Positions 2,248 to 2,595 of a stretch of 7,506 bases of DNA are shown here, piece after piece. The DNA lies in IMG/VR virus record IMGVR_UViG_2541047499_000011, positions 1-7,506 of that record; one strand, 5' to 3'. The first letter of the stretch is position 1. Each line of letters starts with the position of its first letter. The stretch comes from a virus. Its lineage: Duplodnaviria > Heunggongvirae > Uroviricota > Caudoviricetes. The position numbers and the translations under genes were made by a program. The notes below the pieces were generated by a model, which had not been told where the DNA came from, made no database searches, and was given only the letters and a program-made list of their open reading frames with translations.

Positions 2248-2445
2248 ATGCTGAAACAGCAGGATATGACAGAAACCGCCAGAGTTGTGTTTGATGAATT
2301 AAGCGTCACCGAACCGGCGACGGTCGGGGAGATTGCGCAGAATACGTACCTTTCACGCGAGCGCTGCCAGTTAATACTGACCCAGCTGGTTATGGCGGGT
2401 CTGGCAGACTATCAGTTCGGTTGTTACAGACGCCTTCAGTCCTGA
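2248..2445 (+). CDS. Small hypothetical protein (65 aa), possibly a helix-turn-helix DNA-binding protein
   Basis: ATG at 2248 preceded by a purine-rich stretch (GGAAAGGGTAAAAAG). The segment TVGEIAQNTYLSRERCQLILTQLVMAGL looks like an HTH recognition-helix region. The stop codon lies inside the stem of a strong terminator. Confidence 0.5.
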   Translation: MLKQQDMTETARVVFDELSVTEPATVGEIAQNTYLSRERCQLILTQLVMAGLADYQFGCYRRLQS

Positions 2446-2455
2446 AGGCTTTTTT
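2432..2455 (+). terminator. Rho-independent terminator overlapping the stop codon of the 65-aa ORF
   Basis: Perfect 7-bp stem GCCTTCA (2432-2438) / TGAAGGC (2443-2449), 4-nt loop, then TTTTTT (2450-2455). Confidence 0.6.
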
Positions 2456-2472
2456 ATTTGTGGTAAATGGGC

Positions 2473-2503
2473 GGCTGGTGGGTGTAAGGGGCACCCACCA
2501 GCC
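2473..2503. promoter_or_regulatory. Perfect 12-bp inverted repeat in the methyltransferase leader (candidate operator or RNA hairpin)
   Basis: GGCTGGTGGGTG (2473-2484), a 7-nt spacer TAAGGGG, then CACCCACCAGCC (2492-2503), an exact reverse complement. No U-tract follows, so it is not a canonical terminator. A second near-palindrome CTGCTTTGCGCAAAAGCAG lies at 2535-2553. Confidence 0.4.
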
Positions 2504-2595
2504 ATCTGCTCATGCGTTGGGTTCACAAGCAAACCTCAGGCCCACTGCTTTGCGCAAAAGCAGAATGAGCCTATCAGAGACAGGCTTAATGATCC

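Follow-up and report, generated by a model that had tools for sequence, protein, structure and literature searches.

A stretch of 7,506 nt from a virus of the Caudoviricetes (IMG/VR record IMGVR_UViG_2541047499_000011, positions 1 to 7,506), here called the window, covers the late-regulatory part of a lambdoid prophage of E. coli, of the phiP27 or Shiga toxin (Stx) phage type, with all genes on the + strand. Between a winged-helix open reading frame (ORF) of 65 amino acids (aa) and the gene for an M.EcoGII-like N6-adenine DNA methyltransferase, this region carries a conserved and probably bistable cis-regulatory leader that belongs to methyltransferase genes of the M.EcoGII type and has a Chi site in one of its stems. 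We assign a probability of about 0.6 to the reading that an intrinsic terminator and this bistable leader act together, the leader gating the translation of the toxic methyltransferase, while the 5' arm of its first hairpin, P1, is at the same time a Chi site. The coordinates of the helices, Chi sites, and neighboring genes are collected in Table 1.

Conservation and covariation of the leader

An original prediction, made from the letters of the window, had pointed to a terminator fused to a stop codon, a perfect 12-bp inverted repeat, and a second palindrome in front of the methyltransferase gene, and had proposed an operator, a processing site, or a riboregulatory element. The repeat is exactly as described. 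Its arms, GGCTGGTGGGTG and CACCCACCAGCC, are complementary at 12 of 12 positions across a 7-nt spacer, and no T-run follows it on either strand. No other perfect repeat in the window reaches 12 bp with a spacer of 3–20 nt, and 0.003 such repeats are expected per window (Markov-1 simulated windows). With its lower stem, the repeat forms hairpin P1, which has 18 bp in total and a folding energy of -34 kcal/mol (z = -5.9). The second palindrome also exists, as the 19-nt near-palindrome CTGCTTT-GCGCA-AAAGCAG (-8.4 kcal/mol) at 2545–2563, and not at 2535–2553 where it had been placed; the letters there (CTCAGGCCCACTGCTTTGC) show no dyad symmetry (-1.5 kcal/mol, z = +0.7). Comparison across species supports the view that the two dyads are helices P1 and P5 of one conserved leader, whose 5' two-thirds lie in the interval first pointed out. 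The claim that so dense a cluster of dyads is not random sequence thus holds: besides the rarity of the repeat, the whole leader folds with z = -4.4 and is conserved with covariation across the Enterobacterales.

With the methyltransferase protein as query, 80 loci were collected from one-genome-per-species collections, and some 40 of these can be aligned over about 150 nt before the ATG. They range from Escherichia to Morganella and represent the genera Escherichia, Kosakonia, Trabulsiella, Mixta, Enterobacter, Klebsiella, Citrobacter, Buttiauxella, Erwinia, Rosenbergiella, Phytobacter, Providencia, Proteus, and Morganella. A covariance model of the leader (R1) finds one copy per locus, on the + strand and always abutting the methyltransferase ATG (E = 1e-31 to 1e-46), and none in the searched sister loci that lack the methyltransferase. 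A structure supported by covariation and fixed in position 5' of one gene family is what characterizes cis-regulatory RNA. A search with Rfam 15 of the whole window and of 2425–2625 with permissive filters brought no family to its gathering threshold. The matches below threshold were dismissed as chance: the best, P26 on the - strand, reached 24.3 bits where its gathering score is 36, and all others, among them microRNA hairpin models on the palindrome, scored far lower. A limited literature search found no published description of the leader, which is a candidate, on these sequence comparisons, for a new cis-regulatory RNA family not described before.

RNAalifold independently recovers a multi-helix consensus with P1–P4 and two P5 pairs, which was refined to five helices. 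In a MAFFT alignment, 93.9% of the cells in these helices are paired, compared with 29–44% when partners are slid, and 11 pairs have changed on both sides. Model R1 was built from this alignment, and in the 58-sequence alignment (A3) obtained with it, the figures are 95.8% and 28–43% (partners slid by 1–3 columns); both-sided changes occur at 13 of 37 pairs and in 63 cells, against 3–6 pairs and 4–18 cells in the slid controls, and none of 500 shuffles reaches the observed pairing or covariation values. The changes are spread over the structure. The upper stem of P1 has both-sided changes across species at 8 of its 12 pairs. The P2 pair that adjoins the AUG goes from AU to GC in 16 sequences of one E. 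coli lineage; the P3 pairs 78/139 and 79/138 of A3 are changed on both sides in 6 and 9 sequences; and the P4 pair 89/123 goes from GC to AU in 5. The leader helices hold 148 G.U cells and 27 A.C cells, which indicates that the strand that folds is the sense (+) RNA and not duplex DNA.

P1 varies in sequence more than in shape. Proteus and Providencia retain it through compensatory change (GACTGTAAAAGTG/CACCTTTACAGTC), and at one Proteus locus (L312) the arms are GACAGTGAGGATG and CATCCCCGCTGTC. Xenorhabdus has shorter versions. At the Xenorhabdus loci (L280–L307), the P1-equivalent lies about 60–110 nt before the methyltransferase start (locus position 3001) with a U-run next to it, e.g. GCCGGTGAATGCCGGCTTTTCG; it resembles a plain intrinsic terminator between the winged helix-turn-helix (wHTH) gene and the methyltransferase gene, and P4 and P5 are missing there. 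At loci L002, L003, and L005, a diverged P1 hairpin is retained with an HTH gene in place of the methyltransferase gene.

The invariant AUG at the base of P1 (2467) opens an upstream ORF (uORF), which in the window reads MGGWWV* (2467–2487), with the Chi octamer in frame as Trp-Trp; in Mixta the uORF finishes in an AUGA overlap with the methyltransferase start. A conserved leader peptide or Trp-sensing attenuator was considered and rejected because the uORF ranges from 7 to about 48 codons and its sequence differs between genera.

The spacer between the stop at 2445 and the ATG at 2596 is 150 nt long, and not 140 nt as first given. The start of the methyltransferase gene is fixed by an in-frame TGA at -6. 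The ribosome-binding site had been called weak and, judged by eye, it is: there is no good Shine-Dalgarno sequence before the ATG. A third hairpin (2568–2586) is specific to E. coli and was set aside as a leader helix; its 5' half pairs instead with 2538–2541 to form P4. One possible reading of the invariant TGTGRAAAT is an extended -10 element.

The terminator and the 65-aa ORF

The terminator was found as predicted: a stem with four GC pairs and a 4-nt loop is followed by the U-run TTTTTTATTT (-10.5 kcal/mol, z = -3.4), and the TGA stop of the 65-aa ORF (2443–2445) lies within the 3' arm of the stem. A GC-rich stem-loop directly before a U-run is the sequence signature of the Rho-independent class, and by its sequence the terminator itself looks ordinary. 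It is the counterpart of a hairpin, P0, that is found 5' of the leader in most relatives. A P0-type hairpin stands before the leader in most loci of the Enterobacteriaceae and Erwiniaceae, and in most Enterobacteriaceae it overlaps the stop of the 65-aa ORF; a convincing U-tract follows it in only about a quarter of loci. Proteus and Providencia are without P0, and the ORF stop there is only about 10 nt from the leader. It is plausible, as had been suggested, that translation of the 65-aa ORF into the stem modulates termination.

The 65-aa ORF has a weak Pfam match to TrmB (E = 0.0034, below the cut-off) and is named a TrmB family regulator at NCBI. Of 39 full-leader loci, 26 have a homologue right before the leader; by tblastn, another 33 methyltransferase loci (Xenorhabdus, Photorhabdus, and others) contain one somewhere in the locus. 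The ORF is also present in loci without a methyltransferase gene. Because it is linked upstream to the leader and the methyltransferase gene across loci, its product, or its translation, is a candidate trigger of a switch in the leader. The product could be a regulator, or possibly a winged-helix domain that senses N6-methyladenine.

Alternative folds and the proposed gate

An extension of P3 (A3 column 81 with 136) was tried and rejected for lack of covariation. Column 81 covaries instead with column 55, and this led to the helix Alt2. Its pair 55/81 occurs as UA in 23 sequences, CG in 18, AU in 5, and UG in 4, and its pair 58/78 as UA in 46 and CG in 10. A further helix, Alt1, is paired in 100% of 57 sequences, the only variant being the compensatory UGAGC/GCUCA of a Mixta locus (L249). 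Taken together, Alt1 and Alt2 are 82.8% paired, compared with 23–40% when slid, with three Watson-Crick types at one pair. The alternatives are mutually exclusive with the nested helices, Alt2 with P2 and P3, and Alt1 with P4 and the lower stem of P1. The 3' strand of that lower stem is thus held by two partners, as in known RNA switches, and from these sequence patterns the leader RNA looks bistable.

Constrained energies of the two folds are about 1–10 kcal/mol apart in the ten homologues tested. In the window the first fold has -61.3 and the second -54.5 kcal/mol; at two homologous loci the values are -52.4 and -54.1 (L263) and -51.8 and -52.6 (L275). The first fold pairs the six bases before the AUG, and the second leaves 2565–2600 free. 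In 8 of 10 homologues, the predicted unpaired probability of positions -8 to +3 is lower than in controls with shuffled leaders, although the difference is clear in only 3. P2 and P3 reach the AUG; the support from accessibility is mixed, and weak in the window itself. From the pairing before the AUG we infer that the first fold blocks translation of the methyltransferase.

The proposed mechanism would run as follows. In a lysogen, the terminator at 2432–2459 would be one of several that silence the genes downstream of the antiterminator gene Q. When transcription does pass, P1 would form first, and then the nested long-range helices P2, P3, and P4. This default fold would pair the bases directly before the AUG, so that ribosomes would be unable to load (OFF). 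The alternative fold would instead join the lower-stem 3' strand of P1 to 2525–2533 (Alt2) and UGGGC to GCCCA (Alt1), leaving 2565–2600 and the start codon free (ON). The purpose would be to prevent leaky synthesis of an enzyme that is deleterious when unregulated, a translational lock over transcriptional control, and the change from OFF to ON would come late in infection. Candidate triggers are ribosomes finishing the upstream ORF, an RNase III cut at the P1 bulge, the wHTH product, the enzyme itself, or a metabolite.

What is known of the enzyme fits a need for tight control. The methyltransferase has the beta-class motifs (DPPY at residues 35–38, FMGSG near 310) and is 94% identical to the enzyme of phage 1720a-02, and exactly the same protein is on record from about 1000 contigs, O157:H7 included. 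Murray et al. described the phage 1720a-02 enzyme as very similar to M.EcoGII, a non-specific adenine methyltransferase; M.EcoGII itself is not expressed from its prophage in the lysogen, and its constitutive expression is deleterious (PMC5778455). Homologues in Shiga toxin-producing E. coli gave no methylation signal in methylomes obtained from culture by single-molecule real-time sequencing (PMC6602927). In the general paradigm for lambdoid and Stx phages (PMC7547250), genes past Q are silent in the lysogen, and the terminators there are read through by Q-modified polymerase. Since the methyltransferase gene lies between Q and the lysis genes, its transcription is expected only on Q readthrough of terminators such as 2103–2118 and 2432–2459.

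Chi sites in the leader

The window has 5 Chi sites (GCTGGTGG), against 0.34 expected, and each arm of the P1 repeat holds one, on opposite strands. From IMG/VR, 119 related loci (E. coli-type copies) were collected by terminator sequence. About 90% of these have the top-strand Chi of the arm, as do 30 of 41 species-level loci; among the 119, the 5' arm of P1 is nearly invariant. The bottom-strand Chi is present in 22 of the 119 copies and 4 of the 41 species loci. The commonest allele of the 3' arm, CACTCACCAGCC, keeps the pairing via G.U and has lost the bottom-strand Chi. The simplest reading is that the bottom-strand Chi is a by-product of perfect pairing, since it arises where the 3' arm is perfectly complementary to the Chi-bearing 5' arm, and that the window has the fully Watson-Crick allele. 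A second inverted Chi pair, CCACCAGCTGGTGG, lies within the methyltransferase gene; its top-strand Chi is kept in many genera, and its bottom-strand Chi occurs only with CAC His codons. A scan of IMG/VR for convergent Chi pairs shows that other recurrent pairs exist among the matches listed.

Chi sites abound in the relatives as well. The 119 loci have 0.71 Chi per kb, clustered from roughly 3.5 kb upstream to 1 kb downstream of the terminator. In 39 loci, 189 Chi sites are on the top strand and 46 on the bottom strand, or 141 and 32 once the recurrent sites are set aside (p = 1.6e-17). Loci with the arm Chi have a higher density of top-strand Chi elsewhere (0.69 vs 0.36 per kb, p = 0.001, phylogeny being ignored in this comparison). 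Zheng et al. (2025) reported that lambdoid phages are enriched in top-strand Chi near the right end, in the active orientation for RecBCD that enters at cos (PMC12315714). The genes for Q, the methyltransferase, and the esterase are on the + strand; in a related prophage (L241), a holin follows in the same orientation, with terminase genes further downstream. By this gene order and orientation the + strand is the top strand, so the site at 2474 is in the active orientation and the site at 2495 is not. The simplest reading is that the G/U-rich 5' arm of P1 was recruited as a top-strand Chi in phages that accumulate Chi.

In 20 of the 119 loci, the 3' arm of P1 is replaced entirely, and homology ends after GGCTGGTGGGTGT, 4 nt 3' of the octamer. 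At loci L001 (1575–1590), L004, L006, and L016, an unrelated module follows GGCTGGTGGGTGT (window 2485). The Chi thus stands at a mosaic boundary common to three alternative downstream modules. At 2155–2162, the window has GCTGGTAG, one mismatch from Chi; five relatives (L001, L003, L004, L005, and L241) have an exact top-strand Chi there, about 317 bp upstream of the hairpin Chi.

Weighing of the readings

Several points weigh against a translational gate. Functional claims about the leader rest on inference. The occlusion modeling is weak for the window (0.45, vs 0.52 for shuffles) and for two other homologues, and P2 of the window allele either contains a U.U mismatch or shifts its register by one base. 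Independent compensatory events are modest in number, roughly 8–10 lineages, and many of the changed cells are inherited from the split between Proteeae and Enterobacteriaceae or from a single lineage of E. coli. The percentage paired is inflated, because these same sequences were used in part to derive the structure and A3 was then fitted to that structure. P5 is conserved and barely varies, so that covariation speaks neither for nor against it, and Alt1 is almost invariant too and hence hardly tested. The 94% identity of the methyltransferase is to the phage 1720a-02 enzyme and not to M.EcoGII (EGT69837.1) itself. P1 alone is also found upstream of an unrelated HTH gene (L002-type locus), and a Trabulsiella prophage (L246) has a degenerate second module of terminator, GTGAAGATGGGC, and hairpin at 2023–2100, about 900 nt 5' of the methyltransferase gene (model R1, E = 5e-4). 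As P1 occurs by itself after terminators in these cases, it may have a function of its own that is independent of the methyltransferase.

If the repeat were primarily a DNA element, its back-to-back Chi sites would stop RecBCD whichever side it came from, so that the phage or prophage is protected or recombined, and would mark the boundary of a module, and the RNA hairpin would be incidental. The exact octamer in both arms, for which the chance of a Chi in a 12-nt arm is about 1e-4 (the region being Chi-dense), the second inverted pair at 3288–3301, the downstream modules that are common up to the Chi arm, one junction being 4 nt 3' of the octamer, and the documented Chi-rich lambdoid phages (PMC12315714) all speak for it. 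We nevertheless consider it unlikely as the primary function: the bottom-strand Chi is confined to a minority of copies, the hairpin persists in Proteus and Providencia although Chi is absent there altogether, the pair at 3288–3301 is accounted for by coding of His-His-Gln-Leu-Val with CAC, and only the top strand has the orientation published as active. What Chi can account for is thus the 5' arm sequence in many lineages, and not the hairpin. An operator reading, with the dyads as duplex-DNA sites for a dimeric regulator such as the upstream winged-helix protein, has in its favor the dyad symmetry and a small wHTH gene that is adjacent and is linked to the methyltransferase gene in most genera. 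What marks an operator is a conserved palindromic sequence beside a promoter, and the P1 arms do not have this character: their sequences change while pairing stays, G.U pairs are common and strand-specific, 12-bp arms with 7-bp spacing and a lower stem are atypical, the wHTH gene is also present in loci without the 3' arm, and a scan of 1900–3000 found no sigma-70-like promoter. Of the possibilities first raised, the riboregulatory one is thus favored by the covariation, the G.U excess, and a helix that abuts the AUG, and the operator is very improbable.

The remaining readings concern RNA, or nothing at all. The leader could be an element of RNA processing, stability, or attenuation, in which the P1 bulge is an RNase III site or the folds control access of Rho. 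P1, with 18 bp and a conserved one-sided bulge, resembles T7-type RNase III substrates; the Xenorhabdus equivalent with its U-run is terminator-like; and P1 is found without the rest of the leader. A processing role would leave unexplained why P2 and P3 extend right up to the AUG with covariation at that point, and 18 bp is short for RNase III, so we hold it to be improbable as the main function. Processing and a gate are compatible, as cleavage at the bulge could be the trigger from OFF to ON. The leader might also be a true sensor, either a riboswitch or a protein-responsive switch, whose hairpin arm serves RecBCD as Chi, and so be under dual selection as RNA and as DNA. Here the invariant unpaired AAUGGGCG, GGCCCAC, and UCAC would bind S-adenosylmethionine (SAM) or S-adenosylhomocysteine, the 65-aa protein, or the methyltransferase. 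This joint reading is tentative and rather doubtful; if true, binding would flip the occluded fold to the open one and so time the genome-wide adenine methylation of progeny DNA. Finally, short palindromes are common, and the third hairpin is E. coli-specific, as would be expected if hairpins had clustered by chance in an intergenic spacer. The expectation of 0.003 for the repeat, the folding z of the leader, and the order-wide covariation leave next to no room for chance, which is already refuted for P1–P4. The terminator with a translational gate, and a Chi in the 5' arm, is the reading that we prefer.

Genomic setting

Table 1. Features of the window around the leader and its genomic neighborhood. 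Paired strands of a helix are separated by a slash.
Feature	Position	Strand	Remarks
RusA gene	259–630	+	
Antiterminator Q gene	611–991	+	
CPBP/Rce1-like intramembrane protease gene	1137–1961	+	low GC
65-aa winged-helix (TrmB-like) ORF	2248–2445	+	from the ORF list; TGA stop within the terminator stem
Intrinsic terminator	2432–2459	+	stem GCCTTCA/TGAAGGC, 7 bp, and 4-nt loop (2432–2449), then TTTTTTATTT (2450–2459)
Structured leader	2455–2610	+	extent of covariance model R1 (143 bits, E = 9e-36); runs into the first methyltransferase codons
P1 lower stem	2467–2472 / 2508–2513	+	AUGGGC / GCUCAU
P1 upper stem (12-bp repeat)	2473–2484 / 2492–2503	+	loop 2485–2491
P1 one-sided bulge	2504–2507	+	4 nt, AUCU
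P2	2519–2525 / 2590–2595	+	3' strand is the six bases directly before the AUG, ending at -1
P3	2527–2530 / 2584–2587	+	AAGC / GCUU
P4	2538–2541 / 2569–2572	+	AGGC / GCCU
P5 (second palindrome)	2545–2563	+	CUGCUUU-GCGCA-AAAGCAG; conserved core 2547–2551 / 2557–2561
Alt1	2468–2472 / 2540–2544	+	UGGGC / GCCCA; excludes P1 lower stem and P4
Alt2	2505–2513 / 2525–2533	+	excludes P1 lower stem, P2, and P3
Chi octamer GCTGGTGG	2474–2481	+	P1 5' arm; top (late-transcription) strand
Chi octamer GCTGGTGG	2495–2502	-	P1 3' arm
Ribosome-landing region of the methyltransferase gene	2584–2595	+	3' strands of P3 and P2
Beta-class N6-adenine DNA methyltransferase gene, M.EcoGII/M.EcoGI-like	2596–3654	+	352 aa; Pfam N6_N4_Mtase E = 2e-43
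Inverted Chi pair CCACCAGCTGGTGG	3288–3301	both	within the methyltransferase gene; codes His-His-Gln-Leu-Val
Two phage tRNA genes	3695–3770 and 3851–3927		3' of the methyltransferase gene
NanS-p-like esterase gene and DUF826 gene		+	

The 380 bp around the leader match 23 phage records at 90–97% identity, mostly Stx2-converting phages and phiP27. For the window as a whole, the best match among complete E. coli genomes reaches no more than 80% coverage, since it lacks the CPBP moron. The segment 1000–2000, which bears the CPBP gene between Q and the 65-aa ORF, has about 36% GC and is moron-like; in the closest O157:H7 prophages, which are without it, the 65-aa ORF comes directly after a DUF1133 Q-type protein. 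A further strong intrinsic terminator (CCCGCCTCTGAGCGGG, then TTTTTTG) is located at 2103–2128, 5' of the 65-aa ORF, and may be of the tR' type. In Enterobacter and Kosakonia relatives (L253, L244), a terminator resembling this one has the leader directly 3' of it.

Of the two tRNA genes, one has a CAT anticodon and is called Met by ARAGORN and Ile in the annotation of relatives, so that an ileZ-like gene is probable; the second is Arg (TCT). The small RNA (sRNA) STnc100 has a full-length match at 4037–4245 (+, 175 bits), and it is abutted by an anti-sRNA of the AgvB/AsxR type at 4247–4306 (-; 56.6 bits, slightly over the gathering score). The STnc100 and AgvB-like sRNAs fill the position that stx has in Stx phages, and the phage here is without stx.

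Significance and relation to known systems

Enzymes of the M.EcoGII family methylate essentially every adenine and are widely used as tools. A large fraction of E. coli, pathogenic as well as commensal, carries their genes in a silent state: the same 380 bp around the leader is matched in 2128 of 5426 complete genomes. A bistable leader at the start codon would be a concrete and mutable mechanism for keeping such a gene off and then turning it on to protect progeny DNA from restriction, and it would add to the catalog of RNA families a candidate that is absent from Rfam. A Chi within an RNA stem would place one sequence under two selective pressures, and the overlap of Chi and stem may help explain the exchange of lambdoid modules at an exact point.

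The terminator invites comparison with the late terminators that are read through by Q-modified polymerase (tR', and the moron terminators; StxS paradigm, PMC7547250). Like these, it is a GC-rich hairpin with a U-run, past Q and before the lysis genes, and it is likewise expected to halt transcription in the lysogen and to yield to Q-modified polymerase. It differs in that, known from its sequence, it overlaps the stop of a translated ORF, and in that its U-tract is lineage-specific. With the Chi-rich lambdoid phages (PMC12315714; and a 2013 study, PMC3784561), the window and its relatives share the exact GCTGGTGG, the strong top-strand bias, and the clustering at the right end, in the late-regulatory and lysis region. 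Here, in contrast, Chi is within a conserved RNA hairpin stem and forms an inverted pair in some alleles; a term search of PMC12315714 turned up neither a Chi in an RNA stem nor an inverted Chi pair. A related O157 prophage carries a RecE-like exonuclease, so membership of the element in the class of Chi phages with no Rec module is not established.

As RNA, the leader is comparable to translational riboswitches and attenuators such as the SAM-II, SAM-V, and SMK boxes and the ermC leader, the shared features being a conserved 5' leader and helices that exclude one another, with the initiation region occluded by one of them (a predicted occlusion in the present case). It further resembles the riboswitches in having the invariant unpaired AAUGGGCG and GGCCCAC and in lying in cis to a SAM-dependent methyltransferase gene. 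Unlike them, it has no match in Rfam, and unlike in ermC, the uORF at 2467 does not code for a conserved peptide.

A close parallel in biological logic is com-mom of phage Mu, in which a translation-inhibition stem-loop precedes the DNA-modification gene mom and a small regulatory ORF lies upstream. In both systems a late gene for a potentially lethal DNA-modifying enzyme has its start region sequestered in an mRNA structure (in the present case a predicted one), a very small ORF lies directly upstream, and this control is layered over tight transcriptional control. The two have no homology in sequence or structure: the upstream protein is a zinc finger in Mu and a winged helix here, and the present leader is far larger, with five helices and two covarying alternative folds.

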